A stretch of 64,000 nucleotides of DNA from an uncultured Mycoplasmatota bacterium. Its GTDB lineage: Bacteria > Bacillota_I > Bacilli_A > RF39 > UBA660. Each line of letters begins with the position of its first letter. Position 1 is the first letter of the stretch. The DNA lies in contig UQSR01000005.1 in NCBI GenBank assembly GCA_900543825.1, positions 11,122-75,121 of the forward strand, written 5' to 3'. Shown piece by piece: positions 43,982 to 64,000 of the stretch. The translations under genes were made by a program, and so were the position numbers. A model generated the notes under the pieces. That model saw nothing but the letters and a program-made list of their open reading frames with translations. It was not told the origin of the DNA and ran no database searches.

Positions 43982-43993
43982 AAAAATAACCTC

Positions 43994-46516
43994 CTATTTA
44001 TTCAAATTAGTATATCCCTTAAGATGTCTCAAAATACCCAAACAATCATCCTTATCAATCTTACCATCTTTATTATTATCAGCAGCTATAGCATAATAAG
44101 ATTTCAAATCACCATAACCCTTAAGATGTCTCAAAATACCCAAGCAATCATCCTTATCAATCTTACCATCACCATTAACATCACCATAGATAACAATACC
44201 AAAACTCTCTTCTTCCTTACCATTACCAATAACTACAACGTCTCCAGTAACAAAAGTACCACTAGTCTTATTATTACCTTTATTATCCTTTATATTAACA
44301 CTAGCATAATTACTAACTTTCTTAATATTATCAATTAAACTACTAATAGAAGTACCCTCATCAATACCAAAAATATAATCATTATTATATTTAATACCAG
44401 AACTATTCAAAATAGTATCAATTGATGGAATATCATCAGGATTATCTATCTCATCACGTTTAACATTAATAACATATTCTCTACTATTACCACTCTCAGA
44501 AGTAACAATAACACTTATCTTCTTCTCATTACTATCAATACTAATATCACCAGTACCACTAATAGAAGATGAACTAGCAATCTTACTAGCACTAATATTA
44601 ACACTACCAGTACCAGCAGGTACACTAACATCATAAGTATAAGTATCATAACTAAATCCACTAACAGTAGTCCCATTAACCTTCAAATCATTTAAATAAT
44701 TATTAGGATTACCAATTCTAGGAGCAGTAACAGCATAATTAGGCATATCCTTATATACAGGAATAGTAAATTCTAAATCCTTATCAAAATAATCCGAAAT
44801 AATATTAACATAAGACTTATAAACCTTATCAGTCTCTTGAGCAATAACCGCTAAATTCTGCATATACTGATGTGTATAATTACCATTATTCGTAGATACA
44901 TCAAACTTCTCATAATATAAAGTATCCTGATTAACACCACAATATTCATCATAAATAAACTTACTACCACCATATATACCACGATATGGAGTATTCCATC
45001 CATTTTCAACAGCATATCTCATACCATTTAAAATCTTATTAGTACCATAAACCTTAATATTAAAGAAATTATAATAATTAGAATAATTAGTACCATCTAA
45101 AGTAAAACTACCACCACTTCTAGGATCAGAAGTACCAATACCAGATATTTCCTGTTTAATTCTCGCTGCTATATGAAAAGAACTAATACCAATATCTTTA
45201 GTAGCATTAAAAACATCAGAATAAGCATTACCACTATAACCAGAATAAACACTATTCCAATAACTATTATTACCCATTATCTTTTTTACACCATCTTCAG
45301 TATGATTACTATTATAATTAAGAAGTTCATAGGCAATAATATATTTAATATTCAAATAATTTCTCGGATCCAAATAATAAGCTACAGCCTCTGAAGAAGC
45401 ATCATACCATCCATTCTCAGTAGCATAAGAAGTAAACTTATTGCTCAAAATATCATAACTATTTATACCCATCGAATAATAATTCTCATTAAATGCACTA
45501 CCCTGTAATAAATTACGACCATAAGCATTCTCTCCACTTACAACCCCATCAAAAGTAAGAGGTATCGTTTCACTTATAAATTTCCAATTAGGATGCCTTG
45601 CATGAAGTTCTGCTAAATAAGGCAAATAGCTATCAGGAAAACCACCTTTTCTTAAAAAATTATAATAATCATCCAAACTATTATTCTTATAATAATTAAT
45701 AGCCATATCAGAAAGCTTAGTAGTATTAACATAATAACCACATACATAACCACTATTACCCTTACTATCTGTTATATTATAATAATAAGGACAAATACCA
45801 CTAGATTCAGAAGAAGAATTAATAGTTATAACTTCACCACAACTAACCTTTTTACCAGTAGTACTACCGCCAGGAGTCTTTCTAAGAGATAAGTCACCAG
45901 TATCCTCAAAACAACTAATAGTTCCATCTCCACTAGGTTTAGAATTATAATTATCTTTTTTATAAATATTATCTCCACTACCCCTACCAATATCTTTAAC
46001 TGGTGTAGAACTATTAACATCACCTATATATTTACCACATGCATATCCAGTATTACCATTATGTCTAACTTTATACCAATTATCACACTTAGTATTACTA
46101 GCAACATTCTTCTCTAATATTTCCATCTCTTCATTACAATCTAATTTATCAACCTTATTAGTTTTATTAATATCACTCCATATATTTAAAGGATCAGTAT
46201 TCTCAATGCATAAAGCCTTACCCTTATAAGTAGTATTAGAATCTTTAAGTTTAATATAATCACCACATGCATAACCAGTAGTAATATCATATCTAACCTT
46301 ATACCAAGTCCTGCAATTACTAGTAGATCCAGCATTAGTATCAAGAACCTCTACATCACTACCACATGGAATACCCTTTCCTATTAAAGAACCACCAGCA
46401 CTATTTCTTATATTAATAGGTTCATTATCATCAGGACAATAAGCAGTTCCATTAGCAGCATATCCTACATTTATAAATAAAACAAATAATACCAAAGTAA
46501 TAATTATCTTCTTCAT
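43994..46516 (-). CDS. Secreted multidomain cell-wall hydrolase candidate: 3x SH3b-like repeats + GH73-like glucosaminidase region + cadherin-like domain + C-terminal dockerin
   Basis: Three WYKV...GY(A/V)CG repeats and an ENGWNTPYRG / YTHQYMQNLAVIAQ glucosaminidase-like segment. Also a cadherin-like NNYLNDLKVNGTT... segment and a duplicated Ca-binding dockerin pair (GDVNGDGKIDKDDCLGILRHLKGY twice). Confidence 0.5.
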   Translation of the reverse strand: MKKIIITLVLFVLFINVGYAANGTAYCPDDNEPINIRNSAGGSLIGKGIPCGSDVEVLDTNAGSTSNCRTWYKVRYDITTGYACGDYIKLKDSNTTYKGKALCIENTDPLNIWSDINKTNKVDKLDCNEEMEILEKNVASNTKCDNWYKVRHNGNTGYACGKYIGDVNSSTPVKDIGRGSGDNIYKKDNYNSKPSGDGTISCFEDTGDLSLRKTPGGSTTGKKVSCGEVITINSSSESSGICPYYYNITDSKGNSGYVCGYYVNTTKLSDMAINYYKNNSLDDYYNFLRKGGFPDSYLPYLAELHARHPNWKFISETIPLTFDGVVSGENAYGRNLLQGSAFNENYYSMGINSYDILSNKFTSYATENGWYDASSEAVAYYLDPRNYLNIKYIIAYELLNYNSNHTEDGVKKIMGNNSYWNSVYSGYSGNAYSDVFNATKDIGISSFHIAARIKQEISGIGTSDPRSGGSFTLDGTNYSNYYNFFNIKVYGTNKILNGMRYAVENGWNTPYRGIYGGSKFIYDEYCGVNQDTLYYEKFDVSTNNGNYTHQYMQNLAVIAQETDKVYKSYVNIISDYFDKDLEFTIPVYKDMPNYAVTAPRIGNPNNYLNDLKVNGTTVSGFSYDTYTYDVSVPAGTGSVNISASKIASSSSISGTGDISIDSNEKKISVIVTSESGNSREYVINVKRDEIDNPDDIPSIDTILNSSGIKYNNDYIFGIDEGTSISSLIDNIKKVSNYASVNIKDNKGNNKTSGTFVTGDVVVIGNGKEEESFGIVIYGDVNGDGKIDKDDCLGILRHLKGYGDLKSYYAIAADNNKDGKIDKDDCLGILRHLKGYTNLNK

Positions 46517-46599
46517 ATCTTCTACCTCATACTAATTATAACATTTTTAGACAATTTTTGCTATACAAATAAGTAAAATTATAAAATAATACATAATAA

Positions 46600-46635
46600 A
46601 TGTAAAAAAAGAAATAACAATATACATTATTTCTT
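46600..46635 (-). terminator. Rho-independent terminator after the 225-aa gene
   Basis: AAGAAATAA-CAATATACA-TTATTTCTT hairpin; the minus strand continues with TTTTTACAT. Confidence 0.5.
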
Positions 46636-46647
46636 TTAAAAGTAAAT

Positions 46648-47325
46648 TTATTTATAATTATCAAATAATGATAAATCACTACTAGGTATAGTTATCATTT
46701 CTTTAACATTTTCAGGTGGTCTATATTCATTACCCGCTTCTATATATTCATCACCAGAATAATAAGTTCTAACAAGCCAATCATTTTCTAATTTATAGTA
46801 AGTATAATGCTGATATCCCATATGTGCAAAAAATATCACTAGTTGACCATCATTAGATAAATAAATATTACCATGGCCACATCCAAAAATGCCAACATTT
46901 ACAATATCATCAGCATATTTAAGATTTGGATTATCAGTATAAGTATAAACAGATATTTCTTTAGTAGCCTCACTATCACCACTAACAATAAATAACTCTG
47001 GAATACCATCCTTGTTCATATCATACAAATAATAATTAGAATCATTTCTATTTTTTAATATTTTTTTATAATTACTCATTACATCAGATATATTTACAGA
47101 AGTTTTATTATCTTCCTTACCAGTATTATCATTGGTTTGCTCATCATTACCGCCAATATTTTCATTATCATTATTATTTTCATTTTTGTCAGTAGTATCA
47201 CCTTTTTTATTTTCACTAAATACTTTATCATAGACAACATATCCACCTAAACAAATCACCAAAACAAATAATATAATAGCTAAAATAATTAAAAACTTAT
47301 TTTTCTTTTCCATACAATCCTCCAT
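46648..47325 (-). CDS. Membrane-anchored/secreted hypothetical protein with acidic Asn/Asp-rich linker
   Basis: N-terminal TM (FLIILAIILFVLVICLGGYVVY), low-complexity linker and a ~130-aa C-terminal globular region. Confidence 0.45.
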   Translation of the reverse strand: MEDCMEKKNKFLIILAIILFVLVICLGGYVVYDKVFSENKKGDTTDKNENNNDNENIGGNDEQTNDNTGKEDNKTSVNISDVMSNYKKILKNRNDSNYYLYDMNKDGIPELFIVSGDSEATKEISVYTYTDNPNLKYADDIVNVGIFGCGHGNIYLSNDGQLVIFFAHMGYQHYTYYKLENDWLVRTYYSGDEYIEAGNEYRPPENVKEMITIPSSDLSLFDNYK

Positions 47326-47400
47326 ATATAATATATTTTATCGTCATATATAATAAAAGTAAATATTATTTATAAATTTTACAAATAAATCATACATAAG

Positions 47401-47430
47401 TGTAAAAAGAATCTATCAAAAGATAGATTC
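47401..47430 (-). terminator. Rho-independent terminator after the 444-aa surface-protein gene
   Basis: GAATCTATC-AAAA-GATAGATTC hairpin; the minus strand continues with TTTTTACAC. Confidence 0.55.
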
Positions 47431-47435
47431 CAAAA

Positions 47436-48770
47436 TTATTCCTCTATAATGGCGGTTTTTTTATAAAAGAAATACATTCCAACTCCAAAAGAAATAACTA
47501 AAATCATACATATAACAACATATATAGTATTTCCTGTTTCAGGTGGCATAACATCATTATCCTTATTTTTTTCACCTACAGGTGCATTACCTTCAGCATC
47601 TTTTCTAACTATTTTAAAAGTATAAATCCGATCTTTCTCATTATCAGCCTTCACTATAACTTTCAAAATATTTTCCCCAACATTAATATTTGCAAAAGGA
47701 GTTGCATTATAAACTAAACGACCTGTTTTATCAGTTTTCCAAATAAGTTCACCATCTAAGTAGCCATCATGTCCCCCAAGTTCATTATCCTTTACTTTAA
47801 TATTATTGTTTTCCTCCATTGCTTTCAAAATATCAACATCATTAAAAAGCATGACCATTTTCATATCATTATCCAAATCACCACTAACAGCGGAATCAAT
47901 TAAACAAAGATAATCATCTCTATCAGCATTATCTGAACACTCAGCAAATTTAGTAACTTTATTATCAACAATAATTAAATAATCAGTCTTATTCTTATCA
48001 AAACCATAATCATAACCTAAGAAAACAAACTTTGTTAAATAGTTGTCCCCTTTTCCAGTAGGCTTTTCAACAACAGTTTCACCAGGTTTCTTAATATTAA
48101 TAATATAACTCTTAATCAAATTTCTATTTTCTGCTTTTACAGTAATTTTAAATGTATTAGTTCCAGGTTTTAGCGTCTTAATACCTGTACCAGTAACTTC
48201 TGCATCAGAATCATTAGGGGTTGCCTTAATCTCAACACTATTAAGAGATTCAGGAGCCTCAATATTGTATTCATTTTTAAATCTATCAAATTCAAAAGTT
48301 AAACCAGTAACTTCTAAATTTTTTAAACTATTATCAACAGACTGAACATAAACATTTTTACTAACATCTATACCTCTAACTTCTGTTCCATCACTTTTAG
48401 TAGCCACAATATCACTAATTGTAATAGTTTTATTTTTTTTAGGCTCATCATTAATACTAGACATAACAGTAATTTCACCAATTTTATTATTACCAGAAGA
48501 AATACCATTAATAGTTAATATTTGATCATCACCAATTTCAATAGTTTTTGAGTCATTACTAGTAAAACTACATTTTGAAGTACTACTATCAAGAACCTTC
48601 ATTTTAAGACTACTAACATCAAAGTCACTATTAACCATAAAACCACATTTAATAATTCCAGAAAATGTAATTTTCTCCGGACAAGACAAATCAATATTAA
48701 TAGTATCAGCACAAACAAATATAGGTATAAATAATACCATAGCAAATATATAATATATAATTTTTTTCAT
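47436..48770 (-). CDS. Surface protein with cadherin-like domain and C-terminal (S/P)PxTG-type sorting signal (PPETG)
   Basis: Signal peptide, cadherin-like segment (NSLKNLEVTGLTFEFDRFKNEYNIEAPESLNSVEIKATPNDSDAEV). C-terminus: PPETGN, then a hydrophobic segment, then YKKTAIIEE. Confidence 0.55.
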   Translation of the reverse strand: MKKIIYYIFAMVLFIPIFVCADTINIDLSCPEKITFSGIIKCGFMVNSDFDVSSLKMKVLDSSTSKCSFTSNDSKTIEIGDDQILTINGISSGNNKIGEITVMSSINDEPKKNKTITISDIVATKSDGTEVRGIDVSKNVYVQSVDNSLKNLEVTGLTFEFDRFKNEYNIEAPESLNSVEIKATPNDSDAEVTGTGIKTLKPGTNTFKITVKAENRNLIKSYIINIKKPGETVVEKPTGKGDNYLTKFVFLGYDYGFDKNKTDYLIIVDNKVTKFAECSDNADRDDYLCLIDSAVSGDLDNDMKMVMLFNDVDILKAMEENNNIKVKDNELGGHDGYLDGELIWKTDKTGRLVYNATPFANINVGENILKVIVKADNEKDRIYTFKIVRKDAEGNAPVGEKNKDNDVMPPETGNTIYVVICMILVISFGVGMYFFYKKTAIIEE

Positions 48771-48870: not shown

Positions 48871-49314
48871 AAAACTATATGCATTACTAATATCCCTATT
48901 AATCTGTGAAAAGAAATCCCTCTTCTTACCAAATTCCAACTCATAAATCTCAGTCTTAAAAGAATATATTTCCTTATTATCTTTATCAAATAATGTAATC
49001 TTTAATCTAAGATCTTTATTAGTATTAGAATTTAAATTCATAACATATCCATCAAATTCACTCCTATTAGAAGAACATATAACATACATATCAGTAAAAA
49101 CATAATTATCATATACATACTTTTCCATATTCATATTATCAAGTAAATTAATTTCTTTTGTAGTACCAATACTTTCAACATATTCAGTATGACAATCAGT
49201 ACAATCATTATCTTTTTTATTAATAAGTAATATCATACCAATTATCAAAACACTAATTATAATTAATAAAATTATTAATACCCTTTTCTTATTCACTAAT
49301 ATCACCTCTAACAA
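48853..49314 (-). CDS. Small bitopic membrane protein translationally coupled to the 558-aa modular pilin
   Basis: N-terminal TM (VLIILLIIISVLIIGMILLI), ~110-aa Cys-containing ectodomain; start overlaps the pilin stop by 7 nt. Confidence 0.45.
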   Translation of the reverse strand: MLEVILVNKKRVLIILLIIISVLIIGMILLINKKDNDCTDCHTEYVESIGTTKEINLLDNMNMEKYVYDNYVFTDMYVICSSNRSEFDGYVMNLNSNTNKDLRLKITLFDKDNKEIYSFKTEIYELEFGKKRDFFSQINRDISNAYSFKVEEY

Positions 49315-50984
49315 GAATTTTTAGTAGTTTCATCAAAACTATTATTATCACCACTAATATTTTGTAATGAACTTCTAGTAGTAATAGCACAATCATCATA
49401 TATCTTCCATCCATTAGGAATTCCATACGGATAGTCAGGACAAACAAATTTCTCACCAATCTTAGCAACATGACTATTATAATAATCTTTCGACATACCA
49501 CAAACACTACAATAAACAGCAAATCCATAATTATGATAATTGCCACAAGTAAACTGTGTTGATTGCCCTATAGCAAATTTTCTAATTCCCCTTGCTTTCC
49601 ATACATGCGTATGTTCTTGAGTTATACAATTTCTTAACGTATCCCTATCAACAGTTCCATATTCAGAGCTACCATCAAATTCCGTATAATTACAAGTAGT
49701 TTCACTACATGTAGTAATATAATATTTACCATTACTATTGCATCTATAATCATTAATAGAATCTATAAAGCAAGAACTATTATTTAAAGTTGTTCTATTT
49801 ATCTTTCCAACAGTATATTCAAAATAAGATTTATCGTTTTCCTTATATGCCACCGCAGTATATTCACACATATCATCAGGATCACAATAAGTAATAAAAT
49901 AAGAATAAATACCTTGACATCTCCAATCATTAATAGTTGCATCAATATTCTTCCAATTAACTTTAAGAGTTACAGTACAATCACCATTTGAAGCATCACA
50001 GAACTCACTAGCTTTATATGCCTTATCCTGATCAAAAGTTTTACCAACAGTACTACATCCACTACTAGAATCACATATCCAAGTCTCACTATCATATGCA
50101 AAATAACCATCTTTTGTAATATATAAATATTCAGGATTATTATAATTAGCAAGACCAGCACTATCTAAAGAGCCTCCATAATTTATAGTATGGAATACCT
50201 CACTATCATTCCAAGAACAATTAATAACATTATTACTAGTACTACAAGTACCATTAGTAGTACTACCCCTAACACTACCACCATTAGCATCAAGCTTAAT
50301 ATATACCTTATTAATCCTCCACTGAGCATATAAAGTCAAATCAGCATTACTATTATAAGAAGCACCAGCCTTATAAGTAGTTCCACTACCATCCTTTTTA
50401 GTATTCCAATTAACAAAAGTATAACCAGTTCTTGTAGGTTTACTACTAGATAAACTAATACTTTTATTTTCTATTTTACTCTGATCACCAGGAGCATTAC
50501 TACCACCATTAGCATTATAGCTAATAGTATATAAATTATTTTCTTCTGTTTCCTTATTAACACAAGCCTTATAATCATTACTATTAACATCAGCATTATC
50601 ACCCAATATAACAGGTTCACTCTTAACTAAAGAAACCTTATCCTTTTTAATAGAAATATAATTACTCTTATTAATATTATCCGGAAGTTTAGCATTCTTC
50701 TTAATAATACCCTTATTAATAAGTTCCTCAATAGTTATACAATAATATTTATAATTACCACTACCAGGATCAATCCATAAACTATCATCAGCTTCATCAG
50801 CATATAAACTAGCACTCTTCTTAATACTAGTTTCGCTAATTAAAGAACCCTTTTCTTTAGACTTATTAACCAAATTAACAATACCATAAGTACCAATACC
50901 AAGTATTATCGCTACAATAGCAATAACACCAAGTAACTCTATTAAAGTAAAACCCTTATTATTAATCCTTTTCATATATAACAC
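49308..50984 (-). CDS. Modular type IV pilin-like protein (prepilin N-terminal cleavage/methylation domain + Flg_new repeat + Cys-rich module), 558 aa
   Basis: Class-III leader MKRINNKGFTLIELLGVIAIVAIILGIGTYGIV (G|FTLIE), pilin-like head to ~aa 120. One Listeria-Bacteroides/Flg_new repeat (YTISYNANGG...GYTFVNWNTKKDGSGTTY...LTLYAQW), then a ~235-aa Cys-rich module shared with the 1124-aa paralogue. Confidence 0.7.
   Translation of the reverse strand: MLYMKRINNKGFTLIELLGVIAIVAIILGIGTYGIVNLVNKSKEKGSLISETSIKKSASLYADEADDSLWIDPGSGNYKYYCITIEELINKGIIKKNAKLPDNINKSNYISIKKDKVSLVKSEPVILGDNADVNSNDYKACVNKETEENNLYTISYNANGGSNAPGDQSKIENKSISLSSSKPTRTGYTFVNWNTKKDGSGTTYKAGASYNSNADLTLYAQWRINKVYIKLDANGGSVRGSTTNGTCSTSNNVINCSWNDSEVFHTINYGGSLDSAGLANYNNPEYLYITKDGYFAYDSETWICDSSSGCSTVGKTFDQDKAYKASEFCDASNGDCTVTLKVNWKNIDATINDWRCQGIYSYFITYCDPDDMCEYTAVAYKENDKSYFEYTVGKINRTTLNNSSCFIDSINDYRCNSNGKYYITTCSETTCNYTEFDGSSEYGTVDRDTLRNCITQEHTHVWKARGIRKFAIGQSTQFTCGNYHNYGFAVYCSVCGMSKDYYNSHVAKIGEKFVCPDYPYGIPNGWKIYDDCAITTRSSLQNISGDNNSFDETTKNSC
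49600..50320. repeat. ~0.7-kb direct repeat copy A (about 94% identical to 51930-52640) encoding the Cys-rich module
   Basis: The protein segments (R/K)xNKVYIKLDANGGSVRGSTT...TLKVNWK..I..TINDWRC...DRDTL are near-identical. Embedded antisense ORFs 49970..50161 and 52269..52460 differ at only ~6 of 63 codons. Boundaries approximate. Confidence 0.6.
50680..50984. repeat. ~0.3-kb direct repeat (near-identical to 54560-54870) encoding the shared pilin leader/head
   Basis: The first ~100 aa of the 558- and 1124-aa proteins are almost identical, including long identical nucleotide runs (e.g. acccttattaataagttcctcaatagttatacaataatatttataattaccactaccagg). Confidence 0.6.
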
Positions 50985-51070
50985 CTATCCTAAGACTAAT
51001 TATAATATATTTTAAAAAAAAAGAAAAGACCATTAACAAAATAAATGTTAATAGTCCTATATAATAAGTA

Positions 51071-51493
51071 TCATCCTAATGGTTTTTCAAAATAATATAC
51101 TGTACTGCTAAATTCCCCCGAATCCTCTTTTAAAAGCATCATATCATTTTCATAAGAAACCTTAAAAACCCCAGAAAAATAATCAGAATTATTAATAGTT
51201 AATATATCATCTTTTTTTGTATAATTATTGGTGTAACATTTATCATAACAAACATCTACTTTATCATCATAAAATGTAAGGGTAAAAGGAGCCATATCAT
51301 AAGGAATATCTATCTTATTACCATTATTATCATAAGTTTCATATTTTGTATAACTCCAAGTTTCATAGTTTTTATCATCTAATTTAGTTCCTTGTTTTTT
51401 AACAAAAACAAAAATCAATAAGCCAATCATTACCAATAAAATAATAAAAATACATAAATATAACACTTTAATTTTTTTATTCATATCAACCAT
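51071..51493 (-). CDS. Small bitopic membrane protein translationally coupled to the 1124-aa modular pilin
   Basis: N-terminal TM (VLYLCIFIILLVMIGLLIFVFV), ~105-aa ectodomain with 4 Cys; its start is 3 nt after the pilin stop. Confidence 0.45.
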   Translation of the reverse strand: MVDMNKKIKVLYLCIFIILLVMIGLLIFVFVKKQGTKLDDKNYETWSYTKYETYDNNGNKIDIPYDMAPFTLTFYDDKVDVCYDKCYTNNYTKKDDILTINNSDYFSGVFKVSYENDMMLLKEDSGEFSSTVYYFEKPLG

Positions 51494-51495
51494 TT

Positions 51496-54400
51496 CTAAT
51501 AAAATCCTCCAGTCTCAACAGAACCACTAGGGCAAGAACTACGACAGAAGTTACCTATGCAATCTCCTTTACCATTATAGCCTGCATAAGAACCACCTAA
51601 GGAACTAATCTTACTACGACACTGAGCATCAGAGCCAGCAGAAGTAATACATTTAACAATTTTTTTACAGCCACCACTTGTTCCGCCACCACTAGAGCCA
51701 ACGCAACTACTAGGTTTACTTGAAGACAAAGCACTTCCAACCGAGTAACATCCATCATTTGTTACATAATACCATCCGTTAGTAGCATTTACATTAACAG
51801 TTAAAGCAGCACCGCAACTATAGGCCACAGCAATACCATATGAAGTTCCAGCACCATAACGACAGTTTACTCCATTTGATGAAGTAACATACATTGTCTT
51901 AGTATCCGGAACACACTCTTTCAACGTATCTCTATCAACAATATAAAGATTATTAGGGTTCATAGTATTACCATTAAGTTCAGTATATATACATGTAGTT
52001 ACACTACATGTAGTAATTTTATATTTACCATTACTATTACATCTATAATCATCAATATTATCAACAAAACATGAACTAAGATTTAAATTATTCCTATTTA
52101 TCTTACCATAAACACGTTCCGAATAAGATGCACCATTTTCTTTATATGCTCTTGCTGTATATTCACACATATCATCAGAATCACAATAAGTAATAAAGTA
52201 AGAATATTTATCATGACATCTCCAATCATTAATAGTAGTATCAATTTTCTTCCAATTAACTTTAAGAGTTACAGTACAATCTCCACCTGAAGCATCACAG
52301 AACTCACTAGCCTTATATGCCTTATCCTGATCAAAAGTTTTACCAACAGTACTACATCCACTACTAGAATCACATATCCAAGCTTCACTAGCATATGCAA
52401 AATAACCATCTTTTGTAATATATAAATAATCAGGATTATTATAATTAGCAAGACCAGCACTATCTAAAGAATCACCATAATCAATAGTATGAAATAATTC
52501 TTTAGGACTATTCCAACTACAACCGATAAGATTATTATTAGTCCTACAACTACCATAAGTAGTACTACCCCTAACACTACCACCATTAGCATCAAGTTTA
52601 ATATATACTTTATTCTTTTTCCATCTAGCATATAATACAAGTTTATTTTCCGCTATACCGTATTGACCATCAGCATAGTTCCAAGTACCACTCCAACCTG
52701 TCCATCCATAGCCATCATCTGTTCCATTACTTTTTGTTGTCCAACCAGCAAATGTATAACCATCACGTGTAAAGCCATTATTCTTAATAGTAACATTAGT
52801 ACCAAATTCAGCATTATTACTTTCCATAGTACCAGTTCCACCATTTGCATTATAATTAATTCTATAAACTACACCCTTCCAACCAGCATATATCGTTTTA
52901 TTACCTTCCGTATTATATATATCTGAAGATATATACTGAGATATTCTTCTACCTTCCTTTAAACCATATTCAAAGTAATGTTTATATAAACGATTAGCAT
53001 CATAACCAAAAGCATTCTTTAAATCACTATAAGTGTCAGCATAATAATTAAGAGGACTATTTTTATAATTATTATCAAACCAACCTACAAAAGCATAACC
53101 ACGTTTACTAGGTGTACATAAAGTACCATATTCATCACCATAATTCATTGATTTACTAGTGCACCCACTACCACCATTATTATCATAAAGCAAAGTATAA
53201 TTCTTAGTTTTCCAATTAACACCAAGTACTACAGTACAACTCTTATCCTTTGCATCACAAAAATCATCAGAACTATATGCCTCATATTGGCTATATACTT
53301 TTCCACTAGTAGTACATCCGCTTAAACAAATCCATTCCTTATTCTTAGTAACAATAGCATCATTTCTAGTAATATATAAATAATCTTTATTATTATAATT
53401 AGCAAGCCCATTACTATTCATCTTTTCACCATAATTAATAGTATGGAAAATATTTTTGCCATTTCTACTAATAATACCAGAAGAATCAGTAGTATATGTC
53501 CCACCTTTTGAAGTTTCTTTAGTTACACTACCACCATTAGCATTAAGTTTAATATTAACTCTACTTTTAATAATAGGATAATAAGTATTACTACCATCAA
53601 TATCTTTAGAAGTATTTGCCTTCCATATACTACTACTAGCACTACTATCAGTATTCCAGCCTACTATTGTATAACCATCTTTACTAATACTAGGAGATTT
53701 AATACTACATTTCTTATCAATATCATTCAAACAAATATTAGTAATATCATTAGTACCATTATTAATCTTATCAGCATTACCCTTCTTAAATACTGTTCGG
53801 TACAAATTAAATTTCTTATCATTATCTTTATAATTACCAGTTTTATCCATTATTCTAGCAGTAATATCACCATTCTTAATTTCATTATCCTTATAAGTAA
53901 TCTTAACTTCATTTTCATTAACCTTATACCACTTATCTTTAGTAATATTACTAGTACTACCACTACAAGTAAATTTATTATCACTACCAAGCGTACATTC
54001 ACTAACATTCTTATCACTAGTACCATCGACATTAGACTTAAAATAATGCTTACCTTGATCACTCCTAATATTATCATCCTTATAAGTAATCGTAATAGTA
54101 TCATCCTTATAACTAAACGTAGGATCCACAAAATCAGCAAGAGGATAAGTTTTAGTTTCAGAGCAAACTTTAGATCCCTTCTCTGTAGACATACATACTC
54201 TAACATAATAATCATTATTATTTTTATCGTTTGTAAGATTAACTATATTACATACATTTTCATCTTTATCAATAGAAATTACATTTTCCCCATCTGCTAT
54301 AGAAGATGAACCATTTTTATACTGACACCATTTTTCCTTAATTGAACTTTCTGTTTCGGCATTTTTAAACTCTATAACAAAACCATCAGTATATGATTTA

Positions 54401-54870
54401 CCATCACCAAGTTCTGGACTTTTATTTATATCTTCATTATATTTATTACCAGTACACACTTGATAATCAGTACTATTAATATCAGCATTAGAACCCAATA
54501 TAATCGGATCATTTTTAACAAAAGTAACCTTATTTTTCTTAATCGAAACATAATTATATTTATCTATACCCTTAGGAAGTTTAGCATTCTTCTTAATAAT
54601 ACCCTTATTAATAAGTTCCTCAATAGTTATACAATAATATTTATAATTACCACTACCAGGATCAATCCATAAACTATCACCAGCTTCATCAGCATATAAA
54701 CTAGCACTCTCCTTAATACTAGTTTCACTAATTAAAGAACCCTTTTCTTTAGACTTATTAACTAAATTAACAATACCATAAGTACCAACACCAAGTATTA
54801 TCGCTGTAATAGCAATAATAGCCAGTAACTCTATCAAAGTAAAACCCTTATTATTGATTTTATTTTTCAT
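51496..54870 (-). CDS. Giant modular type IV pilin-like protein (prepilin N-terminal domain + several Flg_new repeats + two copies of the Cys-rich module + Gly/Ser/Cys-rich tail), 1124 aa
   Basis: Leader MKNKINNKGFTLIELLAIIAITAIILGVGTYGIV and head near-identical to the 558-aa paralogue; at least three Flg_new-type repeats (e.g. YRINYNANGGTGTM...GYTFAGWTTKSNGTDDGY...LVLYARW). Two copies of the (R/K)..IKL(D/N)ANGGSV...FHTI(N/D)YG...GLANYNN.DYLYIT module; C-terminal SSCVGSSGGGTSGGCKK... tail. Confidence 0.7.
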   Translation of the reverse strand: MKNKINNKGFTLIELLAIIAITAIILGVGTYGIVNLVNKSKEKGSLISETSIKESASLYADEAGDSLWIDPGSGNYKYYCITIEELINKGIIKKNAKLPKGIDKYNYVSIKKNKVTFVKNDPIILGSNADINSTDYQVCTGNKYNEDINKSPELGDGKSYTDGFVIEFKNAETESSIKEKWCQYKNGSSSIADGENVISIDKDENVCNIVNLTNDKNNNDYYVRVCMSTEKGSKVCSETKTYPLADFVDPTFSYKDDTITITYKDDNIRSDQGKHYFKSNVDGTSDKNVSECTLGSDNKFTCSGSTSNITKDKWYKVNENEVKITYKDNEIKNGDITARIMDKTGNYKDNDKKFNLYRTVFKKGNADKINNGTNDITNICLNDIDKKCSIKSPSISKDGYTIVGWNTDSSASSSIWKANTSKDIDGSNTYYPIIKSRVNIKLNANGGSVTKETSKGGTYTTDSSGIISRNGKNIFHTINYGEKMNSNGLANYNNKDYLYITRNDAIVTKNKEWICLSGCTTSGKVYSQYEAYSSDDFCDAKDKSCTVVLGVNWKTKNYTLLYDNNGGSGCTSKSMNYGDEYGTLCTPSKRGYAFVGWFDNNYKNSPLNYYADTYSDLKNAFGYDANRLYKHYFEYGLKEGRRISQYISSDIYNTEGNKTIYAGWKGVVYRINYNANGGTGTMESNNAEFGTNVTIKNNGFTRDGYTFAGWTTKSNGTDDGYGWTGWSGTWNYADGQYGIAENKLVLYARWKKNKVYIKLDANGGSVRGSTTYGSCRTNNNLIGCSWNSPKELFHTIDYGDSLDSAGLANYNNPDYLYITKDGYFAYASEAWICDSSSGCSTVGKTFDQDKAYKASEFCDASGGDCTVTLKVNWKKIDTTINDWRCHDKYSYFITYCDSDDMCEYTARAYKENGASYSERVYGKINRNNLNLSSCFVDNIDDYRCNSNGKYKITTCSVTTCIYTELNGNTMNPNNLYIVDRDTLKECVPDTKTMYVTSSNGVNCRYGAGTSYGIAVAYSCGAALTVNVNATNGWYYVTNDGCYSVGSALSSSKPSSCVGSSGGGTSGGCKKIVKCITSAGSDAQCRSKISSLGGSYAGYNGKGDCIGNFCRSSCPSGSVETGGFY
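51930..52640. repeat. ~0.7-kb direct repeat copy B (paralogue of 49600-50320)
   Basis: See copy A; boundaries approximate. Confidence 0.6.
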
Positions 54871-57822: not shown

Positions 57823-58032
57823 TTACATCATCTTATTCATTTGTTTCATCATTTGATTAACTTGTTTTTGACTAGGAGTTCTTCCCATTTGACTCATCAT
57901 TGTCTTTATCATTTGTTCGTTAATAGGAGGATTCTTCTTAAGTTCATTTTTCATAACCTTTCTAGCTACTAAAAAACCAGAAACAAATCCAACTATCAAA
58001 CCAATTACTATATATAATATATCCCTAAGCAT
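57823..58032 (-). CDS. yneF: UPF0154-family small membrane protein YneF
   Basis: [67 protein letters not shown] closely matches Bacillus YneF (…[17 protein letters not shown]…PSQKKINQMM). Confidence 0.75.
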
Positions 58033-58051: not shown

Positions 58052-58507
58052 CTATTTTACTACAGCTTTATCCTTTTGTAAAGAACCATTTTCCAATATA
58101 CTAAGCCAAAAATAATCCTTATTTTCAAAATCACATACAAAAAGATTATTATTATATCTATTAAGATACTTAAAAAACACACTATAATTATTCTCAGTCT
58201 TAAGCTTAATATTATAATTATTAATTCTAAGAAGTGTCTTTTCACCACTATTCAAAGTATGAACATTACCACATCTCTTATATCCATATTTATACTTATA
58301 CTCATAATAAATATATTCACTTAACATAATCTTATTAAAAGGATCCGCTACATCAAGAAGAGAATGATAAGTCATATTAGTATCATAATTTCTTGTATTA
58401 TAAATTTCTTCAAATATCTTATACATCTTAAAAGGAGTTCTTTTATACATATAAGAAAAATATTTATTAACATTAAAAATATAGTATGTTCTCATTAATA
58501 TCACCAA
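58052..58507 (-). CDS. SirA/YneE-like protein (sporulation inhibitor of replication candidate)
   Basis: 151 aa with RTYYIF N-terminal and [11 protein letters not shown]-terminal motifs, resembling Bacillus SirA (RHYYTYLI...DFNSKRYGWL). It also sits in the conserved tkt-sirA-yneF position. Confidence 0.5.
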
Positions 58508-58545: not shown

Positions 58546-60513
58546 TTATAAATTATTCTTAATTTTAATAACCAAATCCTGAATATCAAGTTCAAAGAAA
58601 GATAAAACCTCTTCTTCACTACCACTCTTGCCAAAAGAATTAATACCCACAAAATCCTCATCACTAGATATAAAACGATACCAATTAGCATCATTAGAAA
58701 GTTCTATAACCATTCTTCTATAACCAGTCGGAAACACCTGCTCTTGATAATCCTTATCTTGTTTTAAAAACAAATTAAGATTAGGCATAGTAACTACTCT
58801 AGCCTCAATATAATTTTTAAGAAGTTCTTCTTTTATCTTCATAGCAAGACCAACTTCACTTCCCGTAGCAATAATAATAATATCAAGTCTTGTTCTAACC
58901 TCACTAATAATATATGCTCCCCTACTTACCTTTTCCGAATTAGTATGTTTCATTGTTTCCAAGTGTCCCCTAGGAAGTACCAAAGCACAAGGCTTACCTT
59001 CTCTTAAAATATTTGTCCATGAACCAATAAGTTCCTTATAATCACAAGGACGATATACCGAAAAATTAGGAATACTACGAAGCATACCAAGTTGTTCTAC
59101 CGGCTGATGTGTAATACCATCAGGACCAACCCTAACACTATCATGTGTAAAAATATAAGTAACAGGTAAATCCATCATCGCACTCATTCTTATTTCAGGC
59201 TTCATATAATCAGCAAAAGCAAGAAAAGTACTACCATAACTTCTAATATTAGTAAGAGCAAGACCATTCATAACAGCTCCCATAAGAGCTTCTCTCACAC
59301 CAAAATTAATATTCCTACCACCATAATCATCATAACTAAACTCTCTCTTACCCTTTAAATAAGTTTTAGTAGAGCAGAACAAATCAGCACTACCACCCAT
59401 ATAATTAGGAATAAAAGTACCAATAACATTCATAATCTGATAATTAATATCCCTCATAGGTTTATCCTCAAATATCTTACTAGCATCCACTACTGCATCA
59501 ATATCCAAAGAAATACCCTCATTTTCAATAACTAAATTAATCTTATCCCTCTCACTATCAGTAGCATTAGCCAAATACATCTCATACTCAGAATACCAAT
59601 CCCTATAATAATCACTAGTACCACCCTTAATAAATTCAATAATACCATTTCTATCATTTTCACTATAAGTAAAAGGACTAGTACCCTTTAAAGTCATTCT
59701 AATATTTTCCAAATCACTCTTATCCAAATCCGAATGAATACGATTAGTTCCTTCATATTTAGAATACTTACCAATTACCGATTCAATCTCAATAATAGTA
59801 GGCTTATTACTCTTCTTAGCCTTCTCAATAGCAGAAGTAATCTCACTAACCGACTCTGAATTACGAACCTTAATAACATTCCAATTCATACTAGTAAACC
59901 TATCAGTAATATTATCATCAAACGTCTTAGAAGTGTCCCCATCTGCTGTAATATTATTTGAATCATATAAAACAATAAGATTATCAAGGCCAAGATTACC
60001 TGCCATCGAAGCAGCTTCGTAAGATACCCCTTCCATCAAATCACCATCAGAACATATACAATATATATTATAATCAAATACAGTATTTTTCTTACGATTA
60101 AAAGTAGCCTCCAAGTATTTTTCTCCTATAGCCATACCAACAGAAGTAGCAAATCCCTGTCCTAATGCTCCAGTAGTCATTTCAATACGATGTGATAAAT
60201 CATACTCAGGATGACCAGGAGTAGAAGATGCAATCTTTCTAAAAGACTTAAGATCATCTATACTATACTCATCAAGCATATAAAACAAACTAGCATAAAG
60301 AAGTGCTGACCCATGTCCACATGACATAACAAGTCTATCCCTATTACACCAATCCTTTCTTTCCATATCAAATTTCAAATGATATGCCAAAAGAGTATAC
60401 ATAGTTGGAGCAAAATCAAGCGCAATACCAGGATGTCCACTACCAGCAGTATTAATCATATCAAGAGCTAATAATCTAATATCATTAATAATTCTTTTTT
60501 CATTAAGTTTCAT
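58546..60513 (-). CDS. tkt: Transketolase
   Basis: 655 aa; TPP-binding GHPG..., GDG/MEG motifs (ICSDGDLMEGVSYEA), and transketolase pyrimidine-binding and C-terminal domains. Confidence 0.9.
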   Translation of the reverse strand: MKLNEKRIINDIRLLALDMINTAGSGHPGIALDFAPTMYTLLAYHLKFDMERKDWCNRDRLVMSCGHGSALLYASLFYMLDEYSIDDLKSFRKIASSTPGHPEYDLSHRIEMTTGALGQGFATSVGMAIGEKYLEATFNRKKNTVFDYNIYCICSDGDLMEGVSYEAASMAGNLGLDNLIVLYDSNNITADGDTSKTFDDNITDRFTSMNWNVIKVRNSESVSEITSAIEKAKKSNKPTIIEIESVIGKYSKYEGTNRIHSDLDKSDLENIRMTLKGTSPFTYSENDRNGIIEFIKGGTSDYYRDWYSEYEMYLANATDSERDKINLVIENEGISLDIDAVVDASKIFEDKPMRDINYQIMNVIGTFIPNYMGGSADLFCSTKTYLKGKREFSYDDYGGRNINFGVREALMGAVMNGLALTNIRSYGSTFLAFADYMKPEIRMSAMMDLPVTYIFTHDSVRVGPDGITHQPVEQLGMLRSIPNFSVYRPCDYKELIGSWTNILREGKPCALVLPRGHLETMKHTNSEKVSRGAYIISEVRTRLDIIIIATGSEVGLAMKIKEELLKNYIEARVVTMPNLNLFLKQDKDYQEQVFPTGYRRMVIELSNDANWYRFISSDEDFVGINSFGKSGSEEEVLSFFELDIQDLVIKIKNNL

Positions 60514-60618
60514 ATCTATAACCTACCTTACAATCTAATTCTAACATAAAAACAAATAAAATAAAAGAAGAAATACATTATTTCCTCTTTATATACCCAT
60601 ATTATGTCAAATAATTAT

Positions 60619-61473
60619 TTATAATCTTTCCAAAACTCCATTTTCCAAATCGTCTATATTATATATTGTTTCAAGTACATTAAAAGTTTCTTCAAGATTA
60701 TGTTTAGCATTATTCCAACCAGTTCCATCAGTAAACCAAATAAATGTTACACCTGTAACTTTTTTAGCTTCTTCCGCTAGCATTTTATAGCTTCTAGCAG
60801 TTTCATTTAGTTTAGAACCACCACTTGTATAAAAATTTGTTTCTATAACATATACCATATTTTCTTTCTTTATAACAAAATCAAATCTTTTAGCGGATAC
60901 ATTATTTCCCGACATAGCACTTAAATCCAAATTCCACTTTCTTTCTATATCCTTCAAATACATTTCCTTAAAATATGTATCATTCTTTTTATACCCAGCT
61001 TTTACAATATATTCTTCTACTAAATTTTCCATTAAATGACCACCACGATTTTTTCTACCATTTGAATCCAAACCAACCTCTATTCCTAGAACATAATCAT
61101 ACAAATTATTTATAATATGATTTTGAAGCAAATCAAAAAGGCCACACTCTCTCATAAATCTAATATAGTCATCAACCGAGTACACTAACTTCTTAAAATT
61201 GAATAAATACTCATTTATCTCATCTTTTATAAAAATTTCACTAGAACGAACCGCAAGTAACAAAGGAATACATTCCAATGTTTCAGGATACCTTATTATT
61301 ATATTTTGAAAATCATCTTCAATTTTTTCACTACCAATCAAAGAATTTAAAATATTTAATTCCAATTTTACCTTATCAACATTTTTATATATCTTATCAA
61401 AATCAACATAATAAGCATAATTTGATATACTTGATTTAAAACTGCTAAACCACTCATTAAAATCTCTATTCAT
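60619..61473 (-). CDS. dpnB: Type II restriction endonuclease, DpnII/MboI family (GATC)
   Basis: 284 aa; conserved blocks LNILNSLIGSE, GLFDLLQNH, GRKNRGGHLMEN, KRFDFVIK and SKLNETARSYKM match DpnII endonuclease (DpnB). Confidence 0.8.
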   Translation of the reverse strand: MNRDFNEWFSSFKSSISNYAYYVDFDKIYKNVDKVKLELNILNSLIGSEKIEDDFQNIIIRYPETLECIPLLLAVRSSEIFIKDEINEYLFNFKKLVYSVDDYIRFMRECGLFDLLQNHIINNLYDYVLGIEVGLDSNGRKNRGGHLMENLVEEYIVKAGYKKNDTYFKEMYLKDIERKWNLDLSAMSGNNVSAKRFDFVIKKENMVYVIETNFYTSGGSKLNETARSYKMLAEEAKKVTGVTFIWFTDGTGWNNAKHNLEETFNVLETIYNIDDLENGVLERL

Positions 61474-62249
61474 TATTTATCATTCTCCAATCTTCTAATA
61501 GTCAAGTCCAAATACCCTTTTTCTCTTTCTATACCAATATATTTTCTATTTAATCTGCTTGCAACTATCCCAGTTGTACCACTACCATTAAAAGGATCTA
61601 AAATCAAATCACCTTCATCTGTTGATGCCATAATGACTTTTTCAAGTAATTCTATCGGTTTCTGCGTAGGATGTTTCCCACATTTCTTCTCACTAGGCTT
61701 AGTAAGTGATGTTTCCCATACGTCTTTCATTTGCTTATTATTATTTAATTTTTTCATAGCATCATAATTAAACTTATATTTAATATTCTTTATATCTTTT
61801 TTTGCCCACAAAATAGTCTCAGTAGAATGCACAAATGCACGACAGCTTATATTAGGAGGTGGATTTAATTTTCTCCAAGTAATATTATTTATTATCTTAA
61901 ACCCGTTCTCTTCAAGTGCCATACCTATTGAATAAATATTATGCATAGTACCACTTATCCATATAGTACCATTATCCTTTAACACTCTTTTACATAATTT
62001 AATCCATTCTTTATTAAATTTATGTTTCTCTTTAAAATCAATAGCCTTATCCCATTCTCCTTTGTTAACACTTACCATCTTACCTCCACTGCAGGTTATA
62101 CCATTATCAGATAGAAAATAAGGAGGATCTGCAAAAATCATATCAATACTCTCTGGTTTAATACTTTTAAGCACTTCCAAAGAATCACCATATATAAGTT
62201 TAAAATCACATTTATCATAATAATAAGCAAACTTTTTCATAAGTATCAC
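61473..62249 (-). CDS. dpnA: DpnA-like N6-adenine DNA methyltransferase (ssDNA-active second MTase of DpnII cassettes)
   Basis: 258 aa; MIFADPPYFLSDNG (DPPY), WISGTMHNIYSVGMALE, KHPTQKPIELLEKVI and DPFNGSGTTG (FxGxG) align along their length with DpnA. Confidence 0.8.
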   Translation of the reverse strand: MILMKKFAYYYDKCDFKLIYGDSLEVLKSIKPESIDMIFADPPYFLSDNGITCSGGKMVSVNKGEWDKAIDFKEKHKFNKEWIKLCKRVLKDNGTIWISGTMHNIYSIGMALEENGFKIINNITWRKLNPPPNISCRAFVHSTETILWAKKDIKNIKYKFNYDAMKKLNNNKQMKDVWETSLTKPSEKKCGKHPTQKPIELLEKVIMASTDEGDLILDPFNGSGTTGIVASRLNRKYIGIEREKGYLDLTIRRLENDK

Positions 62250-62263
62250 ATCCTTGTAACATG

Positions 62264-63124
62264 TTATATTAAGTTATCAAAACCTCTCTTGTTCTCAAAA
62301 TTTGTAATTATAACTTCTTCTACTTTTCCTCTTTTTTTACCATTAGCATTAATATTCCTCTTAGCCTCTATAACATGAATATTAAAATCACTATAAAGTT
62401 CATTAATAAGCTTAGTATTATGATTAGAAAGCATTACAAAACATCCCCTATCAGATAACTCTCTAAATACTTTTGCTAGCCTTCTCTGTTCACCTTTTCC
62501 AAAACCATCTTCTGTATAACTATTAAAAGTAGAAGTATCAGAATCATATGGTGGATCAAAATATATAAAATCACCTCTTTTAGCAGTACTTACAGCATCT
62601 TCAAAATCAATAGATAAAATCTTAATATCATTATAATTTAAAAAACCACAAATTATACCCAAGTTCTGCCCCTCATAAGTATTAACTTTAGCTTTTTTAC
62701 CAAAAGGAACATTAAATTCCCCTTTACTATTAACCCTATATAATCCATTAAAACAAGCCTTATTTAAATAAATAGTTCTAGCGGCTCTTTTATAATCAGC
62801 AATTTTATTAAACTTTTTCTTATCCCTATCTATATTTCTAATTTCATAATAATAATCTTCAGAATGATACATCTCATGACGATTTAATTCTCTACACATA
62901 GCTTCAAACTTTTTCTCATCTTTAATACAATTATATACATTCATAAGTTCATAATTAGAATCATTAATTACTGCCCTTTTAGGAGATAACTCAAATAATA
63001 ACGCACCACCACCCACAAAAGGTTCATAATAAGTATCAAACTCATCAGGAACATATTCCATAAGTTTATTCATTATTTGTCTCTTACCACCAGCCCACTT
63101 TACAAATGGTCTACCTTTAATCAT
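62264..63124 (-). CDS. dpnM: Dam-family GATC N6-adenine DNA methyltransferase (DpnM-like)
   Basis: 286 aa; FVKWAGGKRQ, EPFVGGGALLFEL (FxGxG), NGLYRVNSKGEFNVPFG and DFIYFDPPY match DpnM/Dam. Confidence 0.85.
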   Translation of the reverse strand: MIKGRPFVKWAGGKRQIMNKLMEYVPDEFDTYYEPFVGGGALLFELSPKRAVINDSNYELMNVYNCIKDEKKFEAMCRELNRHEMYHSEDYYYEIRNIDRDKKKFNKIADYKRAARTIYLNKACFNGLYRVNSKGEFNVPFGKKAKVNTYEGQNLGIICGFLNYNDIKILSIDFEDAVSTAKRGDFIYFDPPYDSDTSTFNSYTEDGFGKGEQRRLAKVFRELSDRGCFVMLSNHNTKLINELYSDFNIHVIEAKRNINANGKKRGKVEEVIITNFENKRGFDNLI

Positions 63125-63158
63125 ATTAACTACCTCCTAAATATCATTAATATTATAT

Positions 63159-63189
63159 CATATAAAAAGACATTTTAAAGAAAAATGTC
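63159..63189 (-). terminator. Rho-independent terminator of the NUDIX gene (also bounds the dpnM promoter region)
   Basis: GACATTTT-AAAGA-AAAATGTC hairpin; the minus strand continues with TTTTTATATG, and a TATAAT lies between it and the dpnM RBS. Confidence 0.5.
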
Positions 63190-63235
63190 AAATTTTATAC
63201 ATTTTTATTATCATTAATCAATATAAATATCCCAA

Positions 63236-63799
63236 TTAAGAAACAATATCCTTAAGCATTCTAAACAAATAAATCTCTTCCTTTTTAAATACCAACTCTT
63301 TATCACCAACTTCAATAAGATTAATAACATCATCAATATTATGCCATTCAACATAACTAACTTCTTCCTTTTGAATATTAAAATCATCTTCCTCTAAATC
63401 AGTTATAACATAATAAGGATACATAAAATGATTATTCTCATCTTCCAACACAAGATACTTATTGCATAATACATGTACCTCATTTTTATCCACAACTAGT
63501 CCAACTTCCTCTTCAAGTTCTCTCTTAGCACACGATAAAGGATCTTCTAAATATCCAACATGTCCCGCTATCACACCAAGCATATTAGGACAAAATCTTC
63601 TATTCTTACTCCTTCTCTGAAGAAGTACCTCTCCCTTTTTATTAATAATATAAATAGTAACCTCATTATGAAGTTTAGATAAATCATGAACGTCTTCTCT
63701 TTCTAATACTTCATCAGTATCATTACCATCCTCATCTACTACTCTAATTAATTCCATATAATCACTACTCCATACCATTAATTGTAACAAATAATCCAA
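63236..63799 (-). CDS. NUDIX-family hydrolase
   Basis: Nudix box GHVGYLEDPLSCAKRELEEEVGL (GX5EX7REUXEEXGU). Confidence 0.75.
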   Translation of the reverse strand: MDYLLQLMVWSSDYMELIRVVDEDGNDTDEVLEREDVHDLSKLHNEVTIYIINKKGEVLLQRRSKNRRFCPNMLGVIAGHVGYLEDPLSCAKRELEEEVGLVVDKNEVHVLCNKYLVLEDENNHFMYPYYVITDLEEDDFNIQKEEVSYVEWHNIDDVINLIEVGDKELVFKKEEIYLFRMLKDIVS

Positions 63800-63857
63800 A
63801 TAAAGTACAGAAAAAAATATATAAATCTGTAAAAAAAAGAATAGTATTATTAACTAT

Positions 63858-64000
63858 TCATATTTATTTACTAATTCTATAAGTAGTACCCTCTCTAGTA
63901 TCAGTAAGAATAATACCCTTATCTAATAGTTCATCTCTAATACTATCAGAAAGTTCATAATTCTTATTCATTTTAGCAATTCTTCTCTCTTCTATTTTAT
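63858..64000 (-). CDS. cysS: Cysteine--tRNA ligase, C-terminal 47 aa only (gene runs off the right edge)
   Basis: Minus-strand frame open to the window edge, ending ...IEERRIAKMNKNYELSDSIRDELLDKGIILTDTREGTTYRISK*, which matches the conserved CysRS C-terminus (..DF..AD.IRD.L...GI.LEDT.QGT.W). Confidence 0.5.

Follow-up and report, generated by a model that had tools for sequence, protein, structure and literature searches.

Genes of the cassette and their relatives

The DNA analysed here, a stretch of 64,000 nt referred to as the window, belongs to an uncultured human-gut Bacilli lineage with an AT-rich genome (G+C 27%; 27.3% in the window). Three intact, co-directional and tightly packed genes occupy nt 60619–63124 on the minus strand: dpnM (nt 62264–63124; 286 aa), dpnA (nt 61473–62240; 255 aa) and dpnB (nt 60619–61473; 284 aa). 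The dpnA coordinates are from the ATG at nt 62240, which is the start used by gene callers; an alternative GTG start at nt 62249 would give a product of 258 aa (nt 61473–62249). The gap between dpnM and dpnA is 23 nt, and dpnA and dpnB overlap by 1 nt, the ATG of dpnB overlapping the stop codon of dpnA (TAATG). The upstream flank is a NUDIX hydrolase gene (nt 63236–63799, minus strand; PF00293, E = 1e-18). The downstream flank, also on the minus strand, consists of the transketolase gene tkt (nt 58546–60513; assigned by protein family matches), a sirA-like gene (nt 58052–58507; SirA, PF10747, E = 3e-11) and yneF (nt 57823–58032; YneF/UPF0154), as named in a preliminary description of this DNA.

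The DpnM protein matched the Pfam family MethyltransfD12 (PF02086, E = 2e-62) and the NCBIfam model of the Dam family (TIGR00571; 280 bits, cut-off 115), and is 47% identical to DpnM of Streptococcus pneumoniae (PDB 2DPM, E = 2e-93). An FxGxG motif (EPFVGGGA) followed by DPPY (FDPPY) is visible in the translation, and the product is predicted to be an alpha-class N6-adenine DNA methyltransferase of the Dam family. The DpnA protein, with the motifs ADPPYF and DPFNGSGTTG, matched N6_N4_Mtase (PF01555, E = 3e-64). It could be aligned without gaps to M2.DpnII (DpnA, P0166) over 248 residues at 64% identity, and is 63% identical to LlaDCHI-B of plasmid pSRQ700; judged from these alignments, it is a beta-class N6-adenine methyltransferase orthologous to M2.DpnII. 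The DpnB protein covered positions 1–277 of the 278 in the Pfam DpnII profile (PF04556, E = 2.6e-108), aligned end to end with R.DpnII (P0151; 51% identity over 283 residues, one gap) and matched REase_II of PADLOC (E = 1e-98), which places it in the DpnII/MboI family of type II restriction endonucleases. A PDB search with DpnB returned no match even at E = 1, and no NCBIfam model matched it. A homologue search returned metagenomic relatives of 80–99% identity and no named archetypes; the identities of P0166 and P0151 were confirmed by exact sequence look-up. The locus had been described beforehand as a complete DpnII-type cassette of three genes in the order M-A-R, and this stands, as all three proteins match their archetypes. 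Among the DpnII-type type II restriction-modification (R-M) systems, it is a clear-cut but unremarkable case.

The M-A-R order is that of the archetypal pneumococcal operon dpnMAB (PMC3573125, PMC3812788). In S. pneumoniae, M1.DpnII (DpnM), M2.DpnII (DpnA) and R.DpnII (DpnB) represent the same three families, encoded in the same order on one strand, and the alignments with the window proteins (47, 64 and 51% identity for M, A and R) are near full-length and almost gap-free. A promoter lies upstream of dpnM in both, that of the window being a candidate, and the length of the window DpnA is close to that of the shorter of the two pneumococcal forms (268 and 256 aa). The content of the locus differs between strains in both cases, but strains without the cassette have an empty site here, whereas in S. 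pneumoniae the alternative is a DpnI cassette, and the host, an uncultured gut member of the Bacilli with 27% G+C, is unlike S. pneumoniae. Three genes in M-A-R order are also found in LlaDCHI of Lactococcus lactis (pSRQ700), a functional, experimentally characterised GATC R-M system (PMC4132740), on the Staphylococcus lugdunensis plasmid pRMLUG4_2, and in the contexts of other metagenome-assembled genomes (MAGs). The DpnA-type methylases of the two plasmid cassettes are 63–65% identical to the window DpnA; for LlaDCHI, the Dam-type methylase is 48% identical to that of the window and the endonuclease only 34%. Both of these cassettes are plasmid-borne and lie beside recombinase genes, whereas the window cassette is chromosomal and has no mobility gene.

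Insertion site and strain polymorphism

In a blastn comparison of the window with a sister species (L007), homology was lost at nt 63235/63234 and regained at nt 60618/60617. The inserted segment (nt 60618–63234, minus strand; 2,617 bp) begins one base past the NUDIX stop codon and is absent from the empty-site genomes. In L007 the NUDIX gene adjoins tkt, with no cassette at the site, and conspecific empty alleles (L077-80, L083-85) have flanks 97–99.9% identical to those of the window. Where the filled allele has the insert, the empty sites hold a 25-bp spacer, which is common to L007 and the conspecific empty strains and is missing from the filled allele. Five more distant relatives (L011, L014, L052, L026 and L039), with transketolases 78–80% identical to that of the window, all have the NUDIX gene followed directly by a terminator and tkt, and one relative (L008) is filled, carrying the cassette. 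This comparison of the NUDIX–tkt interval, proposed in the preliminary description, fixes the boundaries at nt 63234–60618, and the empty sites in the sister species, conspecific strains and outgroups bear out the claim that the cassette interrupts the interval. As a 2.6-kb accessory island, the cassette is carried by some strains of the species and lacking in others.

The opposite polarity, in which NUDIX-dpnMAB-tkt is ancestral and the empty sites arose by precise deletion, appears distinctly unlikely. Loss of R-M systems is common, and the cassette predates the split between the window lineage and L008, because its dS values between the two (0.14–0.22) are similar to that of tkt (0.20). This reading is opposed, however, by the uniform arrangement of the five distant relatives, by the spacer shared between the sister species and conspecific empty strains, and by the unrelated contexts in which cassettes are found elsewhere. 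Individual empty strains could be secondary losses, arising by recombination with an empty allele. Homologous recombination through the near-identical flanks is the probable route by which the cassette spreads or is lost.

No transposase or integrase gene was found in the insert, and a search for direct repeats flanking the cassette, or a target-site duplication, gave nothing significant, which leaves neither mobility genes nor significant flanking repeats to explain the original insertion. Cassette copies in other MAGs occupy unrelated contexts. In two of them (L068, L071) homology runs from some 20 nt upstream of the dpnM ATG to the dpnB stop codon, and no mobile-element ends common to these and the window cassette were found. 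The region upstream of dpnM bears a marginal resemblance to the tkt leader (z = 2.7; 16 of 1000 shuffles scored as well) and was not counted as a duplication of it. The G+C content of the cassette is 27.9%, compared with 27.3% for the window, and its GC3 is similar to that of the flanking genes. The absence of a compositional anomaly says nothing about insertion; the matching G+C points either to a donor with a similar base composition or to amelioration.

Transcription signals and predicted function

In a scan of nt 60300–63900 for sigma-70-type promoters, the top score (10/12 plus TG) was obtained ahead of dpnM (nt 63152–63179, minus strand; TTTAAA, 16 nt, TG-extended TATAAT). The candidate is a consensus match only, in a region where the total of such matches is no higher than in shuffled sequence; downstream of it, before dpnM, is the Shine-Dalgarno sequence AGGAGG (nt 63133–63138, minus strand). 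The same scan gave no strong internal candidate ahead of dpnA. A weak AU-rich hairpin with a U-run (GACAUUUU / AAAAUGUC; nt 63169–63189, minus strand) overlaps the -35 hexamer. The dpnM promoter region had been thought to be bounded by the terminator hairpin of the NUDIX gene, but the hairpin found there lies inside the insert, and its 8-bp stem, in a 91-nt context, does not fold significantly better than shuffled sequence (z = -0.5). The filled relative L008 has a similar hairpin, and the empty sites have none. The element arrived with the cassette, and its role may be to shield the operon from transcription reading through from the NUDIX gene. The ancestral NUDIX terminator follows dpnB (nt 60546–60590, minus strand; 12-bp stem and U-rich tail, fold z = -3.2), and the same sequence is found directly after the NUDIX gene in L007 and the empty conspecific alleles. 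This terminator belongs to the conserved tkt leader and now serves as that of the cassette.

Taken together, the cassette is very probably a functional DpnII-type type II R-M operon, dpnM-dpnA-dpnB, with GATC as the predicted target, the activities and specificity being assigned by homology at 47–64% identity. Its transcription would start at an extended -10 promoter of its own. DpnM would methylate double-stranded GATC at adenine N6 and in this way protect the chromosome, while DpnB would cut unmethylated GATC in incoming phage or other foreign DNA. DpnA would act as a second, beta-class methylase, its gene being translationally coupled to dpnB, and may also methylate single-stranded GATC, as suggested by its 64% identity to the characterised enzyme. 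Purifying selection acts on all three genes, with dN/dS values between the window and L008 of 0.06–0.16 (about 0.10 for dpnB), similar to tkt. Given an endonuclease gene that is both intact and selectively constrained, it is reasonable to expect G(m6A)TC methylation in the host.

Dam-family methylases often have regulatory roles, and related cassettes do decay, as in L073, where the R gene is broken into two pieces of 103 and 150 aa. The two window methylases might be orphan Dam-like epigenetic regulators, rather than part of a defence system, if dpnB, though intact in sequence, were silent or inactive. This is very unlikely, as dpnB is full length, aligns throughout with R.DpnII, has a housekeeping-like dN/dS and is translationally coupled to dpnA, and the same DpnB protein recurs without change on 66 contigs (the sequence collection indexes it in 145 blocks). 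That the second methylase is a CcrM/HinfI-like GANTC enzyme that came to lie in the cassette by chance, rather than a DpnA-like GATC enzyme, is extremely improbable: of the solved structures it matches that of the CcrM methyltransferase domain best (E = 6e-64), a ranking that is uninformative because no M2.DpnII structure is among the PDB matches, and its top NCBIfam match is the CcrM model, but at 256 bits this is far under the model cut-off of 830, the identities to M2.DpnII and LlaDCHI-B both exceed that to CcrM, and its gene takes the place of dpnA in a conserved M-A-R operon. Among the Caulobacter CcrM / HinfI-type beta-class N6-adenine methyltransferases, the catalytic domain of CcrM has a beta-class fold and an order of motifs that are also those of the window DpnA; the window protein lacks the CcrM C-terminal domain and sits in a restriction operon, whereas CcrM is an orphan cell-cycle methylase.

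GATC is the most strongly depleted of the 4-bp palindromes in the window (observed/expected 0.39), as would fit recognition of GATC by the cassette, though not specifically. This was rejected as evidence of cassette age or activity because nearly all relatives, including L007 with no cassette at this site, show similar values (0.3–0.6).

Competence and strain-level exchange

The window also carries comEA (nt 41880–42527) and comEC (nt 39860–41911). Those of its proteins that have a prepilin-type N-terminal methylation motif are atypical, being giant and containing Flg_new repeats. The preliminary description had seen in dpnA, comEA/comEC and pseudopilins a strong hint of natural transformability. 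This is unsupported, since DpnA-type genes are standard in such cassettes, including those on plasmids, the presence of comEA/comEC alone is not diagnostic of competence, and a cin-box is lacking. The pneumococcal dpnA gene has a competence-linked cin-box (sigma-X) promoter within dpnM, whereas no match to the cin-box TACGAATA occurs in nt 60619–63234 (the window as a whole has four, with 2.7 expected by chance). As the box is missing ahead of dpnA, there is no evidence for induction of this gene in competence; a different competence regulator could still act on it.

A doubtful but conceivable extension is that the cassette is exchanged by natural transformation, DpnA methylating incoming single strands as in the pneumococcus and so allowing GATC-methylating and non-methylating strains to exchange DNA, or, as a related possibility, that recombination is concentrated at the tkt leader, a hotspot where defence genes are stacked by leader duplication. 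In this small-genome lineage, filled and empty alleles with near-identical flanks are found side by side, both within the species and between sister species. Counted in favour of a hotspot are a HipA-like gene flanked by a 98-nt direct repeat in L008 and, in L012, a PDC-S01 ATPase gene that lies upstream of tkt. If the cassette is exchanged by transformation, the locus would be indirect evidence that an uncultured gut clade is naturally competent.

This locus leaves the understanding of DpnII-type systems as it was, and its practical value is modest. The cleanly bounded insertion, with its empty-site control, adds to the record of R-M cassettes moving without mobility genes. Cassette-bearing strains of this common human-gut Bacilli species are predicted to carry G(m6A)TC methylation and conspecifics without the cassette to lack it, a difference that could make long-read methylation signals useful for strain-resolved binning. 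A restriction barrier to phage and to DNA exchange would then be expected between the filled and empty strain types.

The dpnMAB cassette and its known relatives

The cassette consists of three intact genes on the minus strand: dpnM (ORF 1, 62264-63124, 286 aa), dpnA (ORF 2, 61473-62249, 258 aa from a GTG start, or 255 aa from the ATG at 62240 chosen by gene callers) and dpnB (ORF 3, 60619-61473, 284 aa). The spacing between ORF 1 and ORF 2 is 23 nt and contains an AAGGA-type ribosome-binding site, and one base is shared by ORF 2 and ORF 3 (TAATG), suggestive of translational coupling. Family assignments were unambiguous. ORF 1 is a D12-class N6-adenine methyltransferase (PF02086, E 2e-62) that scores 280 bits against the NCBIfam Dam family model (cut-off 115), ORF 2 belongs to the N6_N4_Mtase family (PF01555, E 3e-64), and ORF 3 is a DpnII endonuclease (PF04556, E 2.6e-108) covering 277 of the 278 profile positions. 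PADLOC classed ORF 1 and ORF 2 as type II methyltransferases and ORF 3 as a type II restriction enzyme. Both methylases carry the catalytic DPPY and SAM-binding FxGxG motifs, arranged in the alpha order in ORF 1 and the beta order in ORF 2.

The best solved-structure match of ORF 1 is pneumococcal DpnM (2DPM, E 8e-82; 47% identity across 275 columns). The reference sequences for pneumococcal R.DpnII and M2.DpnII were confirmed by exact look-up in the collection, where the S. pneumoniae entries are named "Type II restriction enzyme DpnII" and "Type II methyltransferase M2.DpnII". ORF 3 shares 51% identity with the former over 283 residues with one gap, and ORF 2 shares 64% with the latter over 248 residues without gaps. 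The top solved-structure match of ORF 2 was the catalytic domain of CcrM, but ORF 2 lacks the C-terminal domain of that enzyme and scores only 256 bits against the CcrM equivalog model (cut-off 830); this ranking is uninformative because no M2.DpnII structure was found among the solved-structure matches. Given the family matches, archetype identities and methylase motifs, the preliminary description was therefore correct in stating that all three genes match their archetypes block by block.

In the pneumococcal dpnMAB operon, dpnM is preceded by a sigma-70 promoter and dpnA by a competence-specific cin-box promoter (PMC3573125, PMC3812788). The same gene order is found in LlaDCHI of the L. lactis plasmid pSRQ700, a functional system whose A methylase produces GmATC (PMC4132740), and on an S. 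lugdunensis plasmid. It also occurs in other gut Bacilli MAGs in unrelated chromosomal contexts. One of these cassettes (L068) adjoins GmrSD, an ISL3 transposase and a large serine recombinase, and has an extra 123-aa ORF without a Pfam match between dpnA and dpnB (L068:6768-7139). In another MAG context (L073:6780-7682) the endonuclease gene is in two pieces (103 and 150 aa), a case of R-gene decay with both methylases kept. Each defining feature of a DpnII-type cassette that can be assessed from sequence is present in the window, and the genes are assigned to the DpnII/LlaDCHI family, with a predicted GATC specificity, putative methylation of single-stranded DNA by DpnA and, presumably, the same mode of action. 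Membership in the narrower, competence-tuned pneumococcal arrangement is not demonstrated.

Insertion between NUDIX and tkt

In a sister species (L007; Tkt protein 97% identical), tkt directly follows the NUDIX gene. Nucleotide homology between the window and this locus extends from 64000 down to 63235 and is regained at 60617, so the insert spans 63234-60618 (2,617 bp). Its first base lies one past the NUDIX stop codon, its last is at the dpnB stop codon, and it stands in place of a 25-bp spacer. The empty state is ancestral, because in five more distant relatives (L011, L014, L052, L026 and L039) NUDIX, terminator and tkt likewise follow one another without interruption. Strains were compared using contigs that code for an identical YneF protein: they include filled loci (L076, L081, L082) and empty ones (L077-80, L083-85), and in both kinds the flanks share 97-99.9% nucleotide identity with the window. 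The summary covers 18 contigs, with the cassette in about 7 and an empty site in 11. Within one species the cassette is thus an accessory island present in some strains only, and the horizontal insertion proposed earlier is strongly supported by the empty sites and exact bounds. This clean empty-site polymorphism is the best side result of the analysis. Upstream of NUDIX, the filled conspecific L082 carries IS3-family transposase genes (rve, HTH_Tnp_1) instead of cysS (L082:1-1099).

A strong hairpin on the minus strand (60590-60546; 12-bp stem, U-rich tail, z -3.2) is the terminator found directly 3' of NUDIX in all empty-site genomes. The insertion therefore parted NUDIX from its own terminator, at which the dpn operon now ends. 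The earlier placing of the NUDIX terminator at the hairpin before dpnM (63189-63169, minus strand) is geometrically close but historically and functionally wrong: this small AU-rich structure lies inside the inserted DNA and folds no better than shuffled sequence (z -0.5). It overlaps the region's best promoter candidate (63179-63152, minus strand; TTTAAA, 16 nt, TG-TATAAT), which is followed by AGGAGG eight bases ahead of the dpnM ATG.

Compared with the filled relative L008, the window shows a synonymous divergence of 0.14-0.22 in the cassette, matching the 0.20 of tkt. The corresponding dN/dS values are 0.08 (dpnM), 0.16 (dpnA), 0.10 (dpnB) and 0.11 (tkt), and 0.06-0.11 was obtained with L082. 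The cassette is therefore not very recent: it has diverged in step with its flanks, and purifying selection acts on all three genes, including that of the endonuclease. Neither a transposase or integrase nor a significant flanking repeat was found with the cassette, its composition is no different from that of the host, and homology with copies elsewhere is limited to the coding block. Homologous recombination in the conserved flanks would be the most economical route of both gain and loss.

In more distant relatives other genes lie 5' of tkt, so the NUDIX-tkt interval seems to act as a small variable or defence hotspot in the clade. L012 has a PDC-S01 AAA-ATPase gene there (L012:8663-9976, E 9e-149) with a 30-nt promoter-like repeat flanking it, and serS plus a zinc-ribbon membrane protein gene occupy this space in L012, L019 (7687-10000), L020, L022 and L023. 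In L008, dpnB and tkt are separated by a 290-aa HipA-like gene (L008:2654-3704, related to window 60514-60622) that matches the PADLOC candidate defence family PDC-M03A (E 3e-31). A direct repeat of the terminator/tkt-leader segment (98 nt, 94% identical) brackets it, so that each gene has its own leader copy. Elsewhere in the window, a TnpB/IS605 OrfB-type gene (29264-30397; OrfB_IS605 and Cas12f1-like TNB domains) lies near a tRNA gene (28921-28992).

Competence, GATC content and host

The presence of dpnA had been read, together with comEA/comEC and pseudopilins, as a strong hint of natural transformability. In pneumococcus, dpnA is linked to competence by the cin-box promoter (PMC3573125). 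This promoter was not found in the window cassette: the cin-box TACGAATA has no match there, and its four matches elsewhere in the window compare with 2.7 expected by chance. DpnA-type genes are also carried by the Lactococcus and Staphylococcus plasmid cassettes; having dpnA thus belongs to the cassette family and is no evidence on host competence. The window does contain comEA (SLBB and HHH_3 domains) and comEC (Competence and Lactamase_B domains), and the host may be transformable. The supposed pseudopilins are not ordinary ComG pseudopilins. These two very large proteins (49308-54870; 558 and 1124 aa) are atypical, because besides a prepilin-type N-terminal methylation motif they carry Listeria-Bacteroides (Flg_new) repeats. 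After them come cadherin-like, dockerin and SH3 surface proteins (42680-48770). Just downstream of comEC is a YhcG-type PDDEXK nuclease (DUF1016; 38953-39867; PADLOC candidate family PDC-S02, E 6.5e-66).

No other 4-bp palindrome in the window is as depleted as GATC (55 observed, 142 expected, ratio 0.39). The depletion is clade-wide, with ratios of 0.3-0.6 in almost all relatives, and cannot be credited to the window cassette, as L007, with none at the NUDIX-tkt site, falls in the same range. Across the whole loci of the relatives L044, L066, L060, L062 and L063, depletion is extreme (observed/expected 0.0-0.2 for CATG or 0.0-0.15 for GATC), suggesting that other R-M pressures on four-base sites act in those lineages.

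The ORF 3 protein occurs with identical sequence on 66 contigs and is indexed in 145 collection blocks; the contigs examined belong to metagenome assemblies, one of them, of 1.0 Mb, to that of a Hadza sample. Relatives identified by transketolase are labelled uncultured Bacilli, "Tenericutes", Clostridium sp. CAG:302 or Firmicutes CAG:321, and an annotated protein of Candidatus Faecisoma merdavium shares at least 90% identity with DpnM. The G+C content of the window is 27%. The cassette is a known type of system, here in an uncultured gut lineage.
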